From a bacterium (GTDB lineage Bacteria > T1Sed10-126), in assembly GCA_003554945.1 (NCBI GenBank), contig PWHN01000050.1, positions 19,272 through 83,271 of the forward strand: a stretch of DNA of 64,000 bases, read 5' to 3'. Both the position numbers and the translations under genes were made by a program. Of the stretch, positions 1,837-27,535 are shown piece after piece. Below the pieces are notes generated by a model that saw only the letters and a list, made by a program, of their open reading frames with translations, made no database searches and had not been told where the DNA came from. Within the stretch, counting starts at the first letter, position 1. Each line of letters opens with the position of its first letter.

Positions 1837-2292
1837 TTAACTCCCGGTATCAGTGGAGCTGATAATTTTCACTGTGCCGTCGCAGTCCTCCACTTTCTGA
1901 ACTGCTGACTCAGATGCGGCGTGAACTTCTATTGTGAGAGAAACTTCAAGGCTCCCGTCACCGAGCAGTTTAACATGCTCAGTTGAACTAATAAGCCCCG
2001 CCTCTTCAAGTCGTCGAGGGTCAATAGTCTCACCATCGTCAAATTTATTCAGAGAGCGAACATTAATGACTTCTGTTTGCGGGCCACGCTGAAGCGGCGT
2101 AAAACCACGCTTGGGAAGACGGCGATAAAGAGGAGTCTGTCCACCCTCGAAGTAAACAGGAACTTTAAAACGTTTCTTCTGTCCTTTTGTTCCACTACCA
2201 GTTTTTTCACCGCGTCGTGCACCAGCTCCGCGACCTTTACGTATTTTTTCTTTTTTACTGCCGGGGACCGGGGAAAGATCATGTAGTTTCAA
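1837..2292 (-). CDS. rplO: 50S ribosomal protein L15
   Basis: 151 aa with a Gly/Arg/Lys-rich N-terminus; operon position. Confidence 0.9.
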   Translation of the reverse strand: MKLHDLSPVPGSKKEKIRKGRGAGARRGEKTGSGTKGQKKRFKVPVYFEGGQTPLYRRLPKRGFTPLQRGPQTEVINVRSLNKFDDGETIDPRRLEEAGLISSTEHVKLLGDGSLEVSLTIEVHAASESAVQKVEDCDGTVKIISSTDTGS

Positions 2293-2962
2293 CTGACTTC
2301 ACCTCTTCTTGTTCTTCTTCATCCGCTACAGCCTCATCGTCTTCTGACGTCGCGTCTTCAGAGGGTTCAGCGGCATCCTGGTCCTCAGAGGGTTCAGCGG
2401 CATCCTGTTCCTCAGAGGTCTCAGACTCTTCTTCGGCTTCTTCCTCAAGTTTGTCAAGTCCACCAAACGGATTGTCGACCAGCAGCCGATCTACAGGGAT
2501 ACCGCGCAGGTTGGCAATTTTATGTGGATCGCGCATCTCTTTAAAGGCTTCAAATGTCGCCCGGGCAATGTTCAAAGGATTGTCCGATCCAAGAGATTTT
2601 GTCAAAATATCATTAATTCCAGCCAGTTCCACAACAGCCCTTACAGCCCCGCCGGCAATAACTCCAGTTCCAGGATGAGCCGGTTTAAGAAGCACGTGAG
2701 CGCTGTCATATTTACGTTCAATTTCGTGGGGTATCGTTGTCCCAAGCTGAGGGACATCAATCATGTTTTTCTTTGCAGCCGCCTTACCCTTGTGAATGGA
2801 CGGTGCCACTTCATCGGCCTGACCGATCCCTATACCTACACGACCGTCACCGTTACCGACAGCCACCATCGTGGAAAAAGTAAACGTGGAACCTCCAGAT
2901 ATTGCTTTAGAGACACGATTAATATAAACGACACGATCTTCAAGTTCGCCGTTTTTAGCCAC
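2279..2962 (-). CDS. rpsE: 30S ribosomal protein S5 with a ~65-aa acidic C-terminal repeat tail
   Basis: The S5 core is recognisable (VSKAISGGSTFTF...GTGVIAGGAVRAVVELAGI). It is followed by an E/D-rich tail containing SEEQDAAEPSEDQDAAEPSED. No L30 gene lies between S5 and L15. Confidence 0.9.
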   Translation of the reverse strand: MAKNGELEDRVVYINRVSKAISGGSTFTFSTMVAVGNGDGRVGIGIGQADEVAPSIHKGKAAAKKNMIDVPQLGTTIPHEIERKYDSAHVLLKPAHPGTGVIAGGAVRAVVELAGINDILTKSLGSDNPLNIARATFEAFKEMRDPHKIANLRGIPVDRLLVDNPFGGLDKLEEEAEEESETSEEQDAAEPSEDQDAAEPSEDATSEDDEAVADEEEQEEVKSVETT

Positions 2963-9082: not shown

Positions 9083-9375
9083 GCCAGTAGACCCTCCACT
9101 TCTTCAATTACGTCGCCCTCAGCAAGGCGCACAATAGCTTTCTTCCAGTCCGGCGTTACACCGGCGGCCCAGCGAACCCGTTTTTCTTTTCCGCGGACAT
9201 TCATGGTCCTGACGCTTTCCACGTCAACACCAAACATTTCTTCAATCGCCTGCCGGATTTCGATCTTATTCGCATCCCGGTGAACGGCAAAATGGTATTC
9301 GTTAGCATCCCGGCGGTTTTGAATTAACTTTTCTGTTACCAGAGGCTGCTGGATTATGTCTTCTTTTCTCATCAT
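9079..9375 (-). CDS. rplW: 50S ribosomal protein L23
   Basis: 98 aa; operon position. Confidence 0.9.
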   Translation of the reverse strand: MMRKEDIIQQPLVTEKLIQNRRDANEYHFAVHRDANKIEIRQAIEEMFGVDVESVRTMNVRGKEKRVRWAAGVTPDWKKAIVRLAEGDVIEEVEGLLA

Positions 9376-9977
9376 TCAAACCTCGCTTTTAACTGTTCAA
9401 GCGCTTCTCCGGCTAACACAAGCGCCGAATTGGCCACAACATGATAAGTGCTTAAAAGATCAACTTTAAGTAGCCGGCAATAGGGTAAATTACGTACCGA
9501 CAGTTCCAACAGACGGTCCTGACCGTCAGTTAACAGTAAAATGTTTTCATCAACAAGATCCGCGTCGTCAAAAACCTCATGAAGAGTCGCCGTGCTTGGC
9601 TCATCAAGCTCAACTTCAGCCAGCTCAAAGAAAACATCTTCACGAGCCCGAACACCAAGCGCGCTCAGCAATGCCTTCCTCTTCATTTTTCGGGTCAACC
9701 TTTGCGAGTGGTCCTGTTCACCGGTGGGGCCATGAGCGCGACCACCACCAACCCACAGAGGACTAATCCGACTACCGTGACGTGACCGGCCGGTTCCTTT
9801 TTGACGCCAGGGCTTCTTATTACGCCCGGCGACGCGGGCCCGGTTTCTAACAGAAGCCACATCGGCTCGTTTGTTAGCTTCAAAAGCCACCACAGCTTGG
9901 TGGATCAAAGGTTCGTTCATCTCAACTTCGTTGCAAAAACTAAGTTCAGAGTCATCTATCTGTTTAATATCAGCCAT
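9372..9977 (-). CDS. rplD: 50S ribosomal protein L4
   Basis: The L4 core starts at MADIKQ... and contains GRNKKPWRQKGTGRSRHGS. The tracked ORF up to 10223 is a spurious 5' extension that runs across rplC in another frame. Confidence 0.88.
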   Translation of the reverse strand: MADIKQIDDSELSFCNEVEMNEPLIHQAVVAFEANKRADVASVRNRARVAGRNKKPWRQKGTGRSRHGSRISPLWVGGGRAHGPTGEQDHSQRLTRKMKRKALLSALGVRAREDVFFELAEVELDEPSTATLHEVFDDADLVDENILLLTDGQDRLLELSVRNLPYCRLLKVDLLSTYHVVANSALVLAGEALEQLKARFE

Positions 9978-10611
9978 CAATATCACCTTTTTGGGCGCTG
10001 TGGACAACAACTGTTCCACCTTCGCTGCCCGGCACAGAGCCGGAAACAAGTAGCAACCCTTTATCGTCAATAATTTTTTCAATTGTAAGGCTCTGCACAG
10101 TTTTGCGTTTGTTGCCATAACGGCCAGGCATTTTCTTACCGGGATAAACCCGGCTGGGGTCCGCGGAAGGACCAATCGAGCCCGTGTGCCGTCCCAGACG
10201 CCCGCCATGAGAATCGGGGCCACCGGAAAAATTCCAGCGTTTAACTACGCCCTGAAATCCGCGTCCCTTGGTAACTCCGACGACGTCAACAGTATCCCCG
10301 ACTTCAAAAAGCTGAGGGGCAACTTCGGCGCCAGCCTCGACTTCTAAAAGCGGCGAATCTTCAGAGACTACAAACTCGCGGATAACGCGCCGGGGTTCAA
10401 TGCCGCGGGATTCAAACTGTCCGGCCTCCGGCTTATTAAGATTATCAGTTTTATCAAAAGCAAGCTGTACAATCTGTTTTCCGTCAACCTCGCGCTTATC
10501 CACAAGCACGCAGTCGGTCGACTCAATTACAGTAACGGGCACAGCCTCATTTTCATCATTATATACTCGGGTCATTCCTTCTTTTTTTCCCAACAAAACC
10601 TTGTCCATCAT
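9970..10611 (-). CDS. rplC: 50S ribosomal protein L3
   Basis: Contains LLGKKEGMTRVY...VTKGRGFQG; the RBS AGGTGA lies 5 nt upstream. Confidence 0.92.
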   Translation of the reverse strand: MMDKVLLGKKEGMTRVYNDENEAVPVTVIESTDCVLVDKREVDGKQIVQLAFDKTDNLNKPEAGQFESRGIEPRRVIREFVVSEDSPLLEVEAGAEVAPQLFEVGDTVDVVGVTKGRGFQGVVKRWNFSGGPDSHGGRLGRHTGSIGPSADPSRVYPGKKMPGRYGNKRKTVQSLTIEKIIDDKGLLLVSGSVPGSEGGTVVVHSAQKGDIDG

Positions 10612-11309: not shown

Positions 11310-12503
11310 TTACTCTATAATCTCAGTCACAACACCGGCGCCAACAGTTCGGCCACCTTCACGGATAGCAAACTTCTGGTTTTCTTCCAGAGCTACCGGG
11401 ACAACCAGCTCAATTTCTACTTCGACGTCATCGCCGGGCATAACCATGTCAATGCCATCGGGCAGAGCAACGTCACCCGTAACGTCGGTGGTTCGAATGT
11501 AGAACTGTGGACGATATCCGTCGCGGAAAGGTGTGTGCCGGCCCCCCTCGTCTTTGGTAAGCGCATATACCTGTGCTTTAACCTTTGTATGAGGAGTTAT
11601 AGTGCCTGGCTCCACAATTACCATTCCACGCTCAATCTCTTCTTTTTCCACACCGCGAAGCAGTGCTCCTATGTTATCGCCGGCCTCGGCAGTATCCAGA
11701 GTTTTCCGGAACATTTCGAGTCCTGTGATAACAGTTTCCATGGGTTCATCTCGCAAACCAACAATTTCAACGTCATCCTTAACATTAATCTTGCCACGCT
11801 CAACTCGACCGGTGGCAACAGTTCCACGTCCGGTAATGGAAAAGACGTCCTCGATAGCCATGAGAAATGGCTTGTCAATTTCACGTTCAGGAACTGGAAT
11901 GTCTGCGTCCATAACTTCAAGCAGTTCAGCGATTGGGGCCTGAGCCTCATCGTCGTCTGGATTTTCCAGAGCCTGAAGGGCGGACCCTTTAACGATAGAT
12001 ACGCTATCGCCGTCGAAATCGTATTCGGTGAGAAGTTCGCGAATTTCCATTTCAACAATTTCAATCAGCTCAGGGTCATCGACCTGATCAGTTTTGTTAA
12101 TGAATACAACAATCTCCGGGACACCAACCTGACGCGCCAACAGCAGGTGTTCACGGGTCTGGGGCATAGCACCGTCGGCAGCACTTACAACCAGAACAGC
12201 ACCTTCTACCTGAGCAGCACCGGTAATCATGTTTTTAACATAGTCAGCGTGACCCGGACAGTCAACGTGAGCATAGTGCCGGTTTTCGGTCTCATACTCG
12301 ACGTGAGCTGTCGCAATTGTAATTCCACGCTCCTGTTCCTCTGGCGCATTGTCAATATCCTCAAATCCCAGTCCGTCTGCGAATCCCTGACTGGAAAGAT
12401 ATTGAACAATGGCAGCGGTAAGAGTAGTTTTACCGTGGTCAACGTGACCAATTGTACCTACATTAACGTGTGGCTTATCGCGCTCAAATTTTTCTTTAGC
12501 CAT
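11310..12503 (-). CDS. tuf: elongation factor Tu
   Basis: 397 aa containing GHVDHGKTT and DCPGHADY. Confidence 0.97.
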
Positions 12504-20012: not shown

Positions 20013-23000
20013 TTATTCAGTGACCATTTCATCGATATTAAGCTCGCGATCTTTTTCGTCAAAGACACGAATGTCCAGCCCCAGACCCTGCATTTCCTTC
20101 AACAGAACGTTAAAGGACTCGGGCACCCCGGGGACGAAACTCTCTTCGCCTTTGACAATAGACGCGTATGTTCGTGAACGCCCACTCACATCGTCACTTT
20201 TTACCGTAAGAAATTCGCGTAACGTATGAGCAGCTCCATATGCTTCAAGCGCCCAAACTTCCATTTCCCCTAATCGCTGACCGCCAAACTGAGCTTTACC
20301 ACCAAGCGGTTGCTGCGTAACCAGGGAGTATGGTCCAATAGAGCGGGCGTGCACTTTGTCTTCGGCAAGATGTTCAAGTTTCATAATATGCATGTTGCCG
20401 ATTGTAACTTTTTGATCAAAATAATCGCCTGTGCGACCGTCGCGAAGGGGAACTTTGCCATCGCGTGGGTAGCCTGCTTCTTCAAGAATATCAGCGATAT
20501 CTTCGTCAGTTGGGCCTTCAAATACGGGCGCGATTACCCTGTACCCAAGTTCCTCCAGGGCCAGTGTCAGGTGAGTTTCAAGGACCTGGCCAAGGTTCAT
20601 CCGACTGGGAACACCGAGTGGATTAAGCACTACATCCACCGGCTCACCCGCTTCAGTAAACGGCATGTCTTCTTTGGGGAGAATTTTAGATATTACCCCT
20701 TTGTTACCGTGCCGACCGGCTAATTTGTCACCAACACCAATTTTACGCTTGTCAGCGACATAAACCTTAACTTTCTTCTCAACTCCCGCTTCTAAATCGT
20801 CGTTGTTCTCACGACTGAACTCTTTAACATCCACAACTACACCTTTTGTTCCGTGTGGCACCGTTAAAGAGGTGTCCTTAACATCTTTGGCTTTTTCGCC
20901 AAAAATAGAATGGAGAAGCTTATACTCAGGCGAGAGATCTACATGACTCTTTGGCGTTACCTTACCAACCAGCAAATCACCGGGTTCAACATAACTTCCA
21001 ATTTTTATTATCCCTTCGTCGTCAAGATCACGCAGGGCCTGCTTGCTCTGGCTGGGAATATCGCGGGTAATTTCTTCTTTACCCACTTTAGTCTCACGCG
21101 CAGCTATTTCAAGTTCTTCGATATGAATCGAAGTGAATACATCCTCAGTAACCAGCCGTTCAGAGACAAGAATAGCGTCCTCAAAGTTATAACCTTCCCA
21201 GGGCATGAAAGCAACTTTAACGTCGCGACCAAGGGCAAGTTCGCCCTGGCTTGTTGCCGGGCCGTCTGCCAGAACCGAACCGGCCTCAACCTTATCTCCA
21301 ATGTCAACTATGGGAGTCTGATTAAAGCACATCCCCTGATTCGAACGTTTATATTTCATCAAGGGATAAATATCTATCCGGTTTTCACCGGCCTCAGCAA
21401 TTATCTCTCCTGTTTGTTTATCAATCTGGTCTTCCTCTAACTCTTCATCAACTTCAACCCAGATCCGGCGTGAGTCACACTTTACAACCTCACCGTCGCG
21501 CTGCGCCACAACAACAGATCCACTGTCACGAGCAGCTTTTCCTTCTACTCCAGTAGCAACCATAGATCGCTTCGTATTGACCAACGGAACCGCTTGACGC
21601 TGCATGTTTGAACCCATCAGCGCCCGATTGGCGTCATCATTTTCGAGAAATGGAATGCAGGAGGTAGAGATACTGACAATCTGCCGCGGCGATACGTCAA
21701 TATAATCAATTTCGCCACGGTGAACAAGTTCAAACTCATCGGCGCTCCTGGCTCTAATTAGCTCTTTAGTAAACTCACCTTTATCATTAGTTTCAGTTCC
21801 AGCAGCGGCTATATTCGCCTGGTCCTCCTCATCAGCGTCCAGAAAGACTATCTCATCTGTAACCTTACCATCTTTCACAACCCGGTACGGGGTTTCAAGA
21901 AAACCCAGATCATTGACGCGGGCAAAAGTGGCCAGACTAACAATCAATCCAATATTCGGTCCCTCAGGAGTTTCAATAGGACATATGCGGCCATAATGTG
22001 TGTGGTGGACGTCACGGACATCAAACCCGGCTCTTTCCCGGGAAAGACCGCCCGGACCAAGCGCCGACAGACGACGCTTATGAGTGAGCTCGTCAAGCGG
22101 GTTTGTCTGATCCATAAACTGGCTCAGTGAGCCAGTTCCAAAAAACTCCTGCAAATCCGCAGTGAGCGGCTTGATGTTAATCAAGCGGGCCGGGGTTGGC
22201 CGCTCATCGTCTTGAACGTGCATATTGAGTTTGTCTTCAATACTGCGTTCAACGCGGCTTAAACCAGTTTTAGTCTGTTGATAAAGAAGCTCACCTATGG
22301 TCCTCACGCGTCGGTTTGAAAGGTGATCAATGTCGTCAATCTCACCGTCACCGTCAGCTATCTTTATGAAATACTCAAAAATAGCAAGTATATCCTCGGG
22401 GGAAAGGGTTCGTTCCTGGAGGTCTTCCTCCTCTAATCCTTTATGCCCCAGCTTTTTGTTTATTTTGAAGCGTCCCACCCGTTCAAGATCAATTCGATCT
22501 TCATCAAAAAAAGCTCCATAAATATATTCACGGGCGTTTTCAACGCTGTATGGGTCATTAGGCCGAAGTAACTTAAACAATCGTTTGAAGGCCTCGTCCG
22601 GCTCGGTTGTCGGGTCTTTGGCCAGAGTATTTAAGATGACCGGATTGATCTGATCTTCGCGATCTACAATCTTAATCTCATCGTAACCCAGATCCTGCAT
22701 ATCTCGAACAACTTTTTTGTCAATTCGCTGTCCTGCAGGATGGACAATATTATACTGAGGACCGGTTTCCTCTTCCTCTTCTTCAGCCTCCCCCTCTTCT
22801 TCGGCTTCATCTTCCTCGACTGTTTCCGTCTCCACAACTTCTTCCAGTATAGGTTCGGCAAGATACTCAAAAATTAACGAGTCACCGCCATCAACCGAAA
22901 CAACTTTTGTGTCGTAAAAATGTTCAACTATGTCTTCGTTCGTCGGCATTATGTAATCCGACTCGGGATCCTCGGGATCTTCAGGGAGAATACGCAGGAA

Positions 23001-23594
23001 GGTAGTCGATTCAATACGCCGCTCACGGTCTATACTAATTTTCATGCGGTGGCGCGCATCAATATCAATAGTTACCCAGGTTCCTATGTAAGGAACAATT
23101 TTACAGGTAAATCGTTCCTTAGAATCGTCGTAATCGTAAATTACACCTGGCGAACGAATAAGTTGACTGGTAATTATACGCTCGGTGCCATTAACAACGA
23201 ACGATCCCGTAGGAGTCATATAAGGGTAATCACCAAGAAAGACGTCCTCTTCGATTATCTCGCCGGTATCCTTAAAAATCAGTCGCATACGTGCCGTGAT
23301 GGGTACGGAGTAAGTAATTCCTCGTTCCTTACACTCCTGTGGAGTATGCTCGACTTCACCTACTTCATATTGCTCGTATTCAAGGGAGATTTCGTCATTT
23401 TCGATTGGGAAGGTGGACTGCAGAGCATCTTCAAAACCCTGTCTTTTGCGCTCCTCAGGAGCAACGTCCGGCTGTAGAAACCAGTCGTAATGTCGCCGCT
23501 GAATACGCAACAGATCGCCTTCCTCATGTACTTCCTCCAGAGAACTAAAATCGAGAACGTCCTCACCTTCGCGCTTCCACTGGTCAATTACCAT
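20013..23594 (-). CDS. rpoB: DNA-directed RNA polymerase subunit beta (1193 aa)
   Basis: A conserved beta core with an acidic insertion ([28 protein letters not shown]). Confidence 0.97.
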
Positions 23595-23693
23595 ACTACG
23601 TAACCTCCTACGGGTACACAGGAATAATATCCAACCATGGATATATCCTGATTATTAATCTGAGTCCGTTTACAGCCAGGCCAACAACCTGTG

Positions 23694-24089
23694 TTACTTA
23701 AGTTCAACCGTGGCGCCGGCGGCCTCAAGCTGTTCTTTAATTTCTTCGGCGTCCTCGCGAGCGAGACTTTCTTTAACTGCGTTGGGGGCTTCCTCAACGA
23801 GCTGTTTAGCCTCTTTTAGGCCGAGGTCCGTAATAGCACGCACCTCTTTAATAACCTGGATCTTGCTGTCGCCAAAATCAGCGAGAACGACGTCAACCAT
23901 GCTGTCACCTTCGTCTTCTTCTTCGTCGGCTCCAGCCGCTGGTACCGCTGCAACAGCACCTGCCATCGCTCCGGCTTCAACATCAAATCGTTCTTCAATT
24001 TCTTCCACGAGTTCAGACAGTTCTAAAACTGTCATCTCCTCAATAGAATCAATAATTTCATCTTTACTCAACGTAGCCATCAAACTCAC
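23694..24089 (-). CDS. rplL: 50S ribosomal protein L7/L12
   Basis: 131 aa with an Ala-rich hinge and an acidic C-terminal domain. Confidence 0.93.
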
Positions 24090-24883
24090 TCCTCCTGATC
24101 TTCTTTTTGATTTTTAACTTGGTTCAACAGATTAGTCAATTTAACTATCGGATTCTTCAAATATTGTGCAAGCTTCTGTAGCGGTGAATTAAGCCCCATT
24201 GCCACACTGGTTAGCAGTTCGTGGCGCGAAGGCAACTCCGCTATGCGTTCCATCTCTTCAGCATCAAAAAACTCCCGATCAATAATACCCGCCTTCAACT
24301 GAGGATTTTCATACTCTTCCTGAAACTCAACAATGACTTCAGCCATGCGACTCAAATTGCTATCCCCAAAAACAATCGCTGTATTTCCTTTCAGAAGAGC
24401 ATCCACCTTATCCAGTAGACCGTTGCCTTTTTCCGAAAGCTCCAAACTTTCAGCAGCACTGCCACCGGCAAGTTCTTCAGCCGAGTCCAGTATTTTCTCA
24501 GCCATGGCGGGCCCAATCCCGGAGATATCCTGAAGTCCTTCCTGGCCGGTTTCTATTACCTCAGCAACGCTTTCCAGACCGGCTTCTGCAAGTGTTTCGG
24601 CCTTGGACGGGCCAACCCCCTCGAGGTCAGTTAACTCCGGCGTATCTTCCGATTCGTCAGCAGCGGCCTCCACCGGATCCGAATCGCCCACCTGTGCGAA
24701 AGCCCGGCGGGCCAGCCGGTTTTTTACAACGTGAAAACTGGCATCGTTTTCATAAAGTTCCCGCCTCAGCTTCTCCGTCTCTTCGACCGTCATCCCTCTA
24801 AAATTGGTAAAAACCATGTAACTATTATCTTCAATCAGGGTCTGTAGTTCTTCAACCCATTCAACTTTTCGCGCTTTTACCAT
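24086..24883 (-). CDS. rplJ: 50S ribosomal protein L10 with a ~98-aa internal (HhH)2-like insertion
   Basis: The L10 core is recognisable on both sides (…[16 protein letters not shown] / [23 protein letters not shown]…). Inserted residues ~67-164 contain [19 protein letters not shown] and [16 protein letters not shown]. Confidence 0.85.
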
Positions 24884-24907
24884 CGTCTTTTTACCTCCCT
24901 AACTCGG

Positions 24908-25609
24908 TTACGCCAGTTCCCAGGCCGCGGCGGGATCAATCTCTATCCCCGGCGACATGGAGGAGGCCAGCGTAATGGAATCTATGTATTGCCCGCGTGA
25001 AATTCCGGGCGGTTTTTCTTCAATAACAAATTTAAGGACAGCTTTCAGGTTGTCAGCCAGAGCAGAATCATCCATCTCATCAGTTCCCACAGGAGCATGA
25101 ATTATCCCCTGACTGTCGTTACGAAGCTCGACCTGCCCTTGCTTTATTTTTTCAACAGCATCAGCCACATCGAAAGTAACGGTACCGGCCTTGTTGTTCG
25201 GCATTAGCCCTCGAGGACCCAACACAGGTCCCAATTGACCAACCTCACCCATCATATCTGGTGTTGCAACAGCCGCGTCAAAATCAAGCCAGCCGTCTGC
25301 AACCTTTTCAATCAGTTCTTCGTCACCGACAACGTCGGCGCCAGCATCCTCGGCCTCTTTCTGTTTCTCACCGGAAGCAAATATAATCACTTTTGTTTCC
25401 TGACCGGTTCCGGCGGGCAAAACAATAGACCTACGTATTTGCTGATCTGCCTGAGTCGGGTCAATGTTCAACTTGACGTGACACTCGATGGTTTCAACAA
25501 AGTTGGCCGTCGCTGCCTCTTTGACCGCTTCAATTCCAGCCTCAACACCCAGCCGGTCCGCGGACATTTGCTCTTTCAAATCAACGTATCTTTTGCTTCT
25601 AACAGTCAT
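24908..25609 (-). CDS. rplA: 50S ribosomal protein L1
   Basis: 233 aa; operon position. Confidence 0.92.
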
Positions 25610-26064
25610 GCTGCATCACCTGATTGTCGACCTTCGATTTCTATCCCCATGCTGCGAGCAGTTCCGGCTATAATCTTCATGCCCTGCTCGACAGTGTAAG
25701 CGTTCAAGTCGGGAAGTTTTGTTTCAGCAATATCTTTGAGCTCTTCAGTACTAACGCTACCGACCTTGTTCTTGTTCGGTTCGCCGGAAGCTTTAACCAG
25801 TCCTGCCTTCCGTTTGAGCAGAACTGAAGCCGGTGGAGTTTTAGTTATAAAATCAAAGCTGCGATCCTGATATACAGTTATCTCAACAGGAATGATAATC
25901 CCCGGATCAGCGTCCGCAGTTTTTTCATTAAAAGCGTTGCAGAACTCCATGATATTAATACCATGCTGACCGAGAGCTGGACCAACCGGCGGCGCCGGAT
26001 CAGCCTGTCCCGCAGGTATTTGAAGTTTAATCTGAGCTTCTACTGGTTTTTCTGATTCTGGCAT
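25606..26064 (-). CDS. rplK: 50S ribosomal protein L11
   Basis: Contains [26 protein letters not shown]. Confidence 0.93.
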
Positions 26065-26079
26065 AACAAATCCCTCAAT

Positions 26080-26700
26080 CTATAATTTTTCGGCCTGATC
26101 AAAATTTAACTCAACCGGTGTCGAACGACCAAACATGTCTACCGACACCTTAATTTTTGCCCGTTCAATGTCAACGTCTTTTACTGTTCCAGTCATCTCT
26201 TCCATTGCTCCAGCAATAATACGCACGGTGGCGCCCGGCTCGAATTTAACCTGCGGCTCAACTCCGCCCATTTCAATCTGCTGCAGCACGTCGCCCATTT
26301 CAGTCTGGCGAACTGGAATAGGTTCAAGCTGTGTTCCCACGAAACCGGTTATACCGCGCGTCTGACGCACAAAATGCCAGTTGTCTTCTGTCATTTTCAT
26401 TTTAATGAACATGTAGCCGGGGTAAAGCTGCTTCTCTACTTCCTGCTTCTCACCCTGGCGAATTTCCATAACTTCCTGCGTCGGAACAATCACCCGGTCA
26501 ATAACATCTGATTTGCCTTCCTCTTCTACACGGTCAAGAAGTCTCTCCCGGGTTTTTTCTTCCTGCCCGGCAAACGTATGCAGGACAAACCAATCCATTT
26601 CTTCCTCTTCTTCTGTTGCTTCAGCAACTTCGGTTTCATCCGCACCGGCATCTTCTTCAACCACGTCTTCGGACGTCACCGGTTCAGTTTCTGCACTCAT
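26080..26700 (-). CDS. nusG: transcription termination/antitermination factor NusG with an acidic N-terminal extension
   Basis: NGN and KOW domains follow a ~34-aa E/D-rich leader. Position after secE. Confidence 0.9.
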   Translation of the reverse strand: MSAETEPVTSEDVVEEDAGADETEVAEATEEEEEMDWFVLHTFAGQEEKTRERLLDRVEEEGKSDVIDRVIVPTQEVMEIRQGEKQEVEKQLYPGYMFIKMKMTEDNWHFVRQTRGITGFVGTQLEPIPVRQTEMGDVLQQIEMGGVEPQVKFEPGATVRIIAGAMEEMTGTVKDVDIERAKIKVSVDMFGRSTPVELNFDQAEKL

Positions 26701-26721
26701 AAATCATCGCTCCTCATTTTT

Positions 26722-26931
26722 TCACCTGAACATCTGCGTCAGATAGACAAACATCTGACCAAAGATAAAATCCAGCAATCCCACGAAGACCATAAAAAAT
26801 AATGCACAGGCCAGAACAAGCAGGGTTGATTCAAAAAGTTTTTTTGAATCAGGCCAATTTATCCGACCGCCCGGCTTAGCTTCCAACCAGACCTCGTGGA
26901 AAAATTTTTTCATTTTTTTAAACCAACTCAA
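26722..26931 (-). CDS. secE: preprotein translocase subunit SecE
   Basis: 69 aa with a single C-terminal TM; operon position. Confidence 0.85.
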   Translation of the reverse strand: MSWFKKMKKFFHEVWLEAKPGGRINWPDSKKLFESTLLVLACALFFMVFVGLLDFIFGQMFVYLTQMFR

Positions 26932-27017
26932 TTTAAACCACCCAACTCATACTTTGACAAAAAAATATCCCCTTCGCCCCGCACCTAATCTAGATCGCCC
27001 TTCACTTGTACTTATAA

Positions 27018-27094
27018 TGGCAGGCCCGCCGGGAGTCGAACCCGGAACCTCCGGATTTGGAATCCGGCGCTCTCCCAGTTCGAGCTACGGACCT
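27018..27094 (-). tRNA. tRNA-Trp (CCA anticodon)
   Basis: I folded it by hand: AGGTCCG acceptor stem, GCTC/GAGC D stem, anticodon loop TTCCAAA, T arm GGTTCGACTCC, and an encoded 3' CCA. Confidence 0.9.
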
Positions 27095-27304
27095 TCTATC
27101 TATTATCTTATGTTTGATGTGACGTTACCGGCAGGAGTTTTTCAGACCAATTCTGGTAAGGCCTTGCTTAATCTGCAACCCCTCTGTTAGGTAACCTGCT
27201 CGGACAGCTTATTAAACCAGCTTATGAGGCACATTTTTCCTGCCCAAATATAATAGCTGAATAGTTTAACAAATCAAGAATAAAATAGCAAAGAAAAAAT
27301 TTAA

Positions 27305-27378
27305 AGCCGAGGATGGGATTCGAACCCACGACCTCATCCTTACCATGGACGCGCTCTACCGGACTGAGCTACCTCGGC
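27305..27378 (-). tRNA. tRNA-Thr (GGT anticodon)
   Basis: Hand fold: GCCGAGG/CCTCGGC acceptor stem, anticodon loop ATGGTAA, T loop TTCGAAT. No CCA is encoded. Confidence 0.88.
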
Positions 27379-27455
27379 ACAGCGATGTTATATTCTATCT
27401 TACCAGGACGTCAAATTCAAATAGAACTTTCCTACCAGGAAAATAATAATTAGTG

Positions 27456-27535
27456 CCTCTCCGAAAAGTCCCCTCTCCCCTGGAGGGAGAGGGCTAGGGT
27501 GAGGGGGAGGAGATGTTTAACCCTTTTCGGAGAGG
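27456..27535. repeat. 80-nt palindromic repeat element, second copy of the R1 core
   Basis: 13-bp perfect inverted repeats CCTCTCCGAAAAG and CTTTTCGGAGAGG flank TCCCCTCTCCCCTGGAGGGAGAGGGCTAGGGTGAGGGGGA, the same core as at 4609-4648. Confidence 0.6.

Follow-up and report, generated by a model that had tools for sequence, protein, structure and literature searches.

A helix-hairpin-helix domain inserted into ribosomal protein uL10 of a halophilic bacterial lineage

The rplJ gene of the window (the whole 64,000-nucleotide stretch of DNA analysed here) encodes a ribosomal protein uL10 whose N-terminal domain is split by about 90 additional residues. Within these residues lies a tandem helix-hairpin-helix, (HhH)2, module, a self-contained folded domain under purifying selection that is carried on two unconstrained acidic linkers. 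Core ribosomal proteins rarely acquire folded domains, and every translational GTPase docks at the stalk base. A conserved extra domain at this site, fixed in a deep, uncultured, halophilic lineage, amounts to a lineage-specific change to the translation machinery. The novelty lies in the lineage-specific insertion of a domain into a core ribosomal protein; the module that was reused has already been seen on another one, eL32. In the literature that we searched, we found neither an HhH domain in uL10 nor relevant work on HhH motifs or halophily in eL32.

The product of rplJ is a genuine uL10, as judged by family profiles, core fold, and operon position. The open reading frame confirms the length of 265 residues given by an earlier reading made from the sequence only. 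The protein scores 79 bits against PF00466 (Ribosomal_L10; cutoff 22.8), in a match that is split into two pieces, and 143.4 bits against NF000955, the NCBIfam equivalog for bacterial L10 (cutoff 85). Residues 1–66 form α1, β1, α2, β2, and α3, include the invariant VVKN motif, and pair with residues 8–66 of B. subtilis uL10 in an alignment; residues 157–265 pair with B. subtilis residues 72–153. The C-terminal helix α8, which in this family bears the bL12 dimers, spans approximately residues 220–264, in line with a DSSP helix at 220–264 in the AlphaFold2 model. In this model, computed on the family alignment, the uL10 core has pLDDT values of 85–95, and Foldseek matches its fold to solved uL10 chains with TMt values of 0.90 (5o60_I) and 0.93 (7as8_L); the T. 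maritima L10–L12 complex (1zav/1zax) follows at 0.66–0.67. The gene order, secE-nusG-rplK-rplA-rplJ-rplL-rpoB, is the usual one and is identical in the orthologous loci L082–L084. Next to rplJ lies the gene for its stalk partner bL12, which has 128 residues in the JGI record. The 64-kb window contains no rRNA of the lineage.

Table 1. Features of the rplJ region, in positions of the window
Feature	Coordinates	Strand	Remarks
rplJ, encoding the 265-residue uL10	24086..24883	minus	Open reading frame; stop codon included in the coordinates
uL10 N-terminal domain, part 1 (residues 1–66)	24686..24883	minus	Pfam L10 profile positions 1–68; pLDDT 89–92
Linker 1 (residues 67–81)	24641..24685	minus	Acidic; variable in sequence and length
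(HhH)2 domain (residues 82–140)	24464..24640	minus	59 residues in every orthologue
HhH motif 1 (residues 84–102)	24578..24634	minus	Read from the sequence
HhH motif 2 (residues 117–132)	24488..24535	minus	Best stretch of Pfam HHH at residues 114–133
Linker 2 (residues 141–156)	24416..24463	minus	Acidic; variable
uL10 N-terminal domain, part 2, and C-terminal helix α8 (residues 157–265)	24089..24415	minus	NF000955 profile positions 64–168
rplL (bL12)	23694..24089	minus	PF16320 and PF00542; length and domains ordinary
rplK (uL11)	25606..26064	minus	PF03946 and PF00298; pI 4.9; stalk-base neighbour of uL10

The insert interrupts the N-terminal domain of uL10 directly after helix α3. Solved bacterial uL10 chains cover residues 5–64 and 160–241 of the window protein and have about five residues of their own in between. 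Since canonical 174-residue uL10s rejoin the family alignment at residue 157, the insertion comprises approximately residues 67–156 (~90 residues; 24416–24685). The sequence-only reading was right that a contiguous insert is present and overestimated its extent: it gave residues 67–164 (~98 residues) and so wrongly took in a short canonical helix, LLDKVDALL. The two HhH motifs that it described are present; their starts are 33 residues apart, and their hairpins are GVG (residues 89–91) and GIG (residues 122–124).

Profile searches and structure prediction both bear out an (HhH)2 module. With the insert alone as query, Pfam returned HHH_5 (PF14520) at E 1.5e-16 and HHH (PF00633) at E 7e-11, the latter in two stretches; E values of this size exclude chance. 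HHH_5 reaches 61 bits with the isolated insert and 44.9 bits with the whole protein, above its cutoff of 27. AlphaFold2 predicts a confident, compact helical (HhH)2 fold for residues 80–140 (pLDDT 88–95), flanked on both sides by stretches with pLDDT below 50 (residues 69–79 and 142–153). Both linkers are thus predicted to be disordered. Since the model as a whole has a pTM of 0.55, no fixed position of the module relative to the uL10 core is predicted. Among the solved uL10 structures matched by Foldseek, none has such a domain.

In 14 full-length orthologues the module has a constant length, a mean pairwise identity of 0.46, and a net charge of −6 to −12. The core regions of uL10 are likewise conserved in length, with a mean pairwise identity of 0.48–0.59 and varying charge. 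Linker 1 has 15–24 residues, a mean pairwise identity of 0.15, and a net charge of −1 to −9; for linker 2, the values are 13–24 residues, 0.13, and −2 to −9. Seven positions of the module (G89, G91, P92, L117, G122, G124, and A128) are invariant in the 14 orthologues. Each hairpin is followed by a lysine that is kept amid acidic residues: K94, after hairpin 1, is Lys or Arg in 16 of 19 sequences, and K130, after hairpin 2, is Lys in 14 of 19.

The module is very acidic: its net charge of −6 to −12 in 59 residues is roughly double the acidic excess of an average protein of the window. One rival reading is that it is passive halophilic ballast, i.e. a soluble acidic domain with linkers that serves hydration or solubility of uL10 or the stalk in molar salt, or acts as an entropic bristle, and has no specific ligand. 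Acidic insertions and tails are common in the window (uS5, RpoB, NusG), the two linkers are likewise acidic and free to vary in sequence, and all carriers belong to a lineage of acidic proteins. However, the other acidic additions (a C-terminal tail on uS5, a poly-Glu insert in RpoB, and an N-terminal extension on NusG) are all of low complexity and are not folded domains. By contrast, the uL10 module is a fixed 59-residue fold with invariant hairpin Gly, Pro, and Ala residues, conserved as well as the uL10 core, and a related module occurs on the eL32 of a non-acidic archaeon (P0252). We therefore consider ballast quite unlikely; if it were the answer, the insert would be a curiosity of halophilic protein evolution.

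The unusual length of the protein is the one feature that might point to an artefact, such as a chimeric assembly, a frameshift, or a gene call that wrongly fuses uL10 with an unrelated HhH gene. In a search of 5.8 billion proteins, however, the identical protein was found on three contigs, from NCBI, JGI, and Logan sources. Insert-bearing orthologues from separate assemblies, about 20 in all and diverged from one another, share this architecture and the insertion site. The uL10 fold is complete only with both halves of the protein, and the GC content at third codon positions is similar in insert (0.50) and core (0.46). An artefact is vanishingly improbable on these grounds, and the sequence-only reading was correct in dismissing an assembly fusion. 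Total GC (0.56 in the insert versus 0.44) was considered as a sign of recent acquisition and is uninformative; with third positions being similar, the higher value probably results from the Gly, Ala, Glu, and Pro content of the insert.

In the databases searched, the insert occurs in a single clade. The search of 5.8 billion proteins returned, beyond the window protein, 14 further full-length or partial insert-bearing uL10s that are 39–75% identical to it; the next matches are ordinary 174-residue uL10s. Five more insert-bearing orthologues came from a search of 1.84 billion representatives. When a family profile was run against these representatives, which are clustered at 50% identity, only eight clusters gave an unbroken match that ran through the insert; the other uL10s among the matches listed match in two stretches and therefore do not carry it. 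No insert-bearing uL10 from outside the clade was found among the 1.84 billion representatives, a set in which other salt-in organisms would be included. The insert is present in only three GTDB species representatives, and a scan of metagenome contigs with the family gave only canonical uL10 among the matches listed. Two loci considered as partial carriers, L130 and L157, encode ordinary proteins of 171 and 189 residues.

The insertion site is not a commonly variable loop, a possibility that the sequence-only reading itself had named as a refutation. Alignment to related uL10s places the insert at one site throughout the clade and shows ordinary 174-residue uL10s without it. Other uL10s are also well above ~170 residues, including the Verrucomicrobiota-type proteins (224–277 residues) and P0362, P0364, and P0314. 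Their extra residues form an unfolded, low-complexity tail at the C-terminus (or N-terminus), i.e. at a different site, and because other long uL10s owe their length to such terminal tails, the site of the insert is not generally variable.

Several observations place the carriers in a deep lineage of salt-in character. The RpoB encoded in the window has 11 relatives at 72–83% identity, followed by proteins of at most 52% identity from Spirochaetota, Bacillota, and Hydrogenedentota; the fall from at least 72% inside to at most 52% outside argues that the clade is deep and isolated. An identical rplJ gene lies on a contig of JGI sample 3300000557 (SL_8KL_010_SED), a name that we take to denote soda-lake sediment. 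Acidic ribosomal proteins are a hallmark of salt-in halophiles. The soluble proteins of the window are strongly acidic, and even the RNA-binding ones are (uL1, pI 4.4; uL11, 4.9; uS5, 4.4). Across the clade loci, the pI of uL1 is 4.2–5.0 where the protein was recovered, and that of uL11, recovered in four of them (L002, L003, L082, and the window), is 4.8–5.0; the corresponding proteins of comparator phyla have values of 9.3–9.8 (9.5–9.8 for uL11). Two genomes from hypersaline lake sediment in Siberia first defined phylum T1Sed10-126 ('Ca. Salsurabacteriota'), for which a median pI below 5 is described (bioRxiv 10.1101/2024.03.10.584303); it is still uncultured (PMC13162412). The acidic proteins of the clade, the drop in RpoB identity at its border, and its apparent soda-lake sediment source are consistent with this phylum, to which the lineage may belong.

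Outside uL10, the closest sequence matches of the module are the N-terminal regions of haloarchaeal eL32. Residues 8–84 of H. marismortui L32e (1JJ2 chain X) match the module at E 2e-9, and NCBIfam PRK12766 matches residues 75–140 of the window uL10 at E 2.6e-12. A search with an insert-only profile placed N-terminal fragments of haloarchaeal eL32 at the top, followed by archaeal RadA N-terminal domains. Scored against a profile of the uL10 modules, haloarchaeal eL32 reaches 70–78 bits, level with divergent members of the uL10 clade that had been left out of the profile (69–85 bits) and above RadA (58–61 bits) and ComEA (26–28 bits); UvrC scores 50 bits. The uL10 and eL32 modules belong to the same HHH_5 subtype, and share the signature GVGPSKAE ... 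L.xxxGIGxAxAxK; the positions of K94 and K130 are Lys or Arg in the eL32 modules. Both are acidic, both are joined through an acidic linker to a protein of the large subunit, and both occur in hosts with acidic proteins.

The two differ in how the module is attached. On eL32, an archaeal protein that occupies another site of the ribosome, one to four copies extend the N-terminus, whereas in the bacterial uL10, at the stalk base, one copy lies internally and divides a domain in two. Pfam listed no eL32 core (PF01655) in the window uL10, and sequence comparison identifies the insert as a relative of the eL32 module, while the protein itself does not belong to the eL32 family. To ask whether the uL10 modules derive from eL32, 44 modules were placed in a neighbour-joining tree (57 columns), which gave 0% bootstrap for monophyly of the uL10 modules, supported only the RadA-type group, and favours no direction of transfer. 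A common origin of the uL10 and eL32 modules, inter-domain transfer included, is plausible, and the matching module on eL32 suggests that a small domain was either recruited convergently or passed between domains of life in hypersaline habitats. The structural matches listed for the module include no eL32 chain, in spite of the similarity in sequence, suggesting that the eL32 module was never resolved on deposited ribosomes; the uL10 module is, in turn, predicted to be mobile. A purely salt-based account is tempered by two further carriers: the eL32 of P0252, lysine-rich and apparently from a non-halophilic archaeon, has four such modules, and an archaeal Top6A has seven.

RadA-type modules are distinct from those of uL10. 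They form a group of their own in the tree (92% bootstrap), with the uL10 modules outside, and the N-terminal domain of RadA/Rad51/Dmc1 is attached to an ATPase core, which uL10 lacks. RadA has GVGPATAEK, with Thr after hairpin 1, where the uL10 and eL32 modules have GVGPSKAE and a conserved Lys. Other carriers, Methanopyrus topoisomerase V and engineered HhH-polymerase chimeras, are DNA enzymes with many tandem copies, compared with one in uL10.

The fold matches to (HhH)2 domains of RadA/Rad51, Pol X, UvrC, and Topo V, which bind double-stranded DNA, could be taken to favour an extraribosomal or regulatory role, in which the module would serve feedback of uL10–bL12 on their own mRNA or would tether ribosomes or free uL10 to the DNA of the nucleoid. 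Autoregulation has a precedent in E. coli, where L10(L12)4 controls the rplJL mRNA. Yet a search of the operon for an Rfam L10 leader or another known leader found none, whether gathering thresholds were applied or matches of E up to 1 were admitted. The spacer between rplA and rplJ, only 24 nt long, is too short to hold a leader immediately before rplJ, and nothing else points to DNA tethering. We regard a role of this kind as highly unlikely.

A precedent for an extra globular domain in the N-terminal domain of uL10 at the stalk base is provided by insertion domain II of P0, the archaeal and eukaryotic uL10 (RL10P_insert). Equivalence with this domain was considered and rejected: the fold differs, and PF00466 is split at profile position 68 in the window protein, whereas P0 domain II comes after the whole PF00466 region. 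Pfam listed no RL10P_insert in the window uL10 at E up to 1, and M. jannaschii P0 (3jsy) matches it via the common core only.

[quoted passage not shown] By analogy, the uL10 module could be a docking domain that provides an additional recruitment site at the stalk base; candidate partners would be a translational GTPase, the C-terminal domain of bL12, uL11, or a hibernation, assembly, or coupling factor. Only the fold is shared, however; sequence similarity to NusA C-terminal chains is not significant (E 0.49–0.68). The insignificant similarity to the acidic repeats (E 0.5–0.7) contrasts with the strong similarity to modules of the RadA/eL32 type. In the NusA repeats and the α C-terminal domain the hairpins are degenerate, and Gly-x-Gly is lost in the former; in uL10, both hairpins and the lysines that follow them are invariant or nearly so. 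Moreover, eL32 carries the same module at a great distance from the stalk, and a partner specific to the stalk would hardly account for both; nor does the operon contain a conspicuous gene for a partner. These observations make docking somewhat unlikely.

The explanation that we tentatively favour is that the module is a tethered, sequence-independent, salt-tolerant arm that binds RNA backbone at the stalk base. The insert departs from the C-terminal end of helix α3, and because α3 bears the most conserved basic residues of the family (VVKN...RR), the module probably exits uL10 near its rRNA-binding face. Linkers of about 13–24 residues would let it sweep the stalk base, i.e. H42–H44, uL11, and the factor-binding region. 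The two invariant Gly-x-Gly hairpins, each with its conserved lysine, could then grip RNA backbone. HhH motifs contact nucleic acids mostly through main-chain atoms and bound cations, and we propose that contacts of this type would tolerate molar salt. The arm may transiently hold rRNA, during assembly of the stalk base or in the mature particle, or an incoming tRNA, and in doing so it would make up for the electrostatic attraction that was lost once uL10, uL11, and uL1 turned acidic.

Published data bear on an RNA-binding arm in both directions. According to its title, one study found that HhH motifs make a chimeric DNA polymerase more tolerant of salt (PMC8313265). L10 is reported to contact chiefly the sugar-phosphate backbone of H42 and adjoining loops (PMC1635324), the type of target that an HhH hairpin recognizes, which we count in favour of the arm. 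On the other hand, binding of archaeal L10/L12 to rRNA is nearly independent of salt from 50 to 800 mM KCl (PMC1635324), so that there may be no need for a further anchor that withstands salt. The apparent failure of the homologous eL32 module to be resolved on any ribosome also argues against a stable rRNA contact. Among side observations, the use of the module as an add-on to nucleic-acid enzymes, as in Top6A, the acidic uL1 and uL11 of the clade, and the occurrence of the module on eL32 of halophiles were counted for an RNA-binding arm; its strong acidity and predicted mobility, the lack of insert-bearing uL10s outside the clade among the representatives, and the eL32 of P0252 were counted against it.

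A bolder proposal is that, in a whole candidate phylum of extremely halophilic bacteria, the (HhH)2 arm functions within the GTPase-associated centre, providing a salt-tolerant contact to rRNA, tRNA, or a factor, and that the module was exchanged between haloarchaea (eL32) and these bacteria (uL10). We hold this to be unlikely; if true, a ribosomal add-on would have moved horizontally, as a single domain, between Archaea and Bacteria of the same brines. The insert also offers a handle on how ribosomes cope once even their RNA-binding proteins are acidic, and the module is a candidate salt-tolerant nucleic-acid-binding tag.

For metagenomic surveys, the insert is a clean sequence signature by which the clade can be spotted. 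Among the open reading frames of the window, the insert profile found no copy of the module besides that in uL10, and in six-frame translations of 84 loci only uL10 genes of the clade matched well. The latter search also gave one weak match, of 22 bits, in locus L081.

The computed isoelectric points of uL1 (4.4), uL11 (4.9), and uS5 (4.4) from the window are low for proteins of this type, which bind rRNA and are normally basic. The small globular ribosomal proteins of the window are still basic. Acidity of normally basic rRNA-binding proteins recurs at the other loci of the clade, and this pattern, in the window and across the clade, fits a salt-in halophile.

Coordinates of acidic proteins and segments and of the uL3, uL4, and uL11 genes
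Feature	Location	Strand	Description
rpoB	window 20013-23594	-	
RpoB Glu-rich run	window 22764-22844	-	residues 251-277
nusG	window 26080-26700	-	
NusG acidic N-terminal extension	window 26599-26700	-	~34 residues
rplA (uL1)	window 24908-25609		example of window-wide acidity
rplK (uL11)	window 25606-26064		example of window-wide acidity
tuf	window 11310-12503		example of window-wide acidity
uS5 gene	window 2279-2962	-	227 aa
uS5 acidic tail	window 2282-2458	-	residues 169-227, low-complexity
uL4 longest ORF	window 9372-10223	-	283 aa
uL3 gene	window 9970-10611		overlapped by start of uL4 longest ORF
uL11 gene as called	L084 2699-3250	+	183 aa

Discrete acidic segments are found in both RpoB and NusG. 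RpoB, which is 72-83% identical to its clade relatives vs at most 52% beyond the clade, carries a run of ~27 residues, mostly Glu. In NusG, the acidic residues precede the N-terminal domain, and the orthologues at the clade loci L002, L003, L082, and L084 have similarly acidic N-termini. The Pfam S5 domains of uS5 end at residue 153, and the tail beyond them contains a near-repeat, EQDAAEPSED followed by DQDAAEPSED. The tail is acidic and of low complexity and is not a folded domain; it looks like one more case of a halophile-type acidic segment added to a ribosomal protein.

The N-terminal surplus of uL4 is not an extension but an artefact of the start codon. The first ~80 residues of its longest ORF overlap the uL3 gene, and the Pfam L4 match begins only at residue 99. 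The uL11 called on L084, the contig of a clade member that bears P0009, is longer than its counterparts in the window and at the remaining clade loci (146-156 aa) and has no match to the HhH module profile.

The spacer between rplA and rplJ is 24 nt (window 24884-24907), and none of the Rfam L10, L1, and L11 leader RNAs was found in the operon (23500-27500), even with the E-value limit relaxed to 1. Any uL10 autoregulation in this operon does without a known leader.

HhH modules also occur on other proteins. Two proteins from the representatives search owe their high scores against the uL10-with-insert profile solely to HhH modules. P0241 (950 aa) is subunit A of an archaeal topoisomerase VI and has seven HHH_5 modules at its N-terminus; it is lysine-rich and not halophilic. 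P0242 (3360 aa) is a giant protein in which six HHH_5 modules accompany one peptidase M23 and one LysM domain. Archaeal eL32 proteins (P0103-P0114, P0363, and P0252) bear between one and four (HhH)2 modules at their N-termini. Those from haloarchaea are acidic; P0252 (444 aa) is basic, with KKKRK linkers, so the fusion of HhH modules to eL32 extends beyond halophiles.
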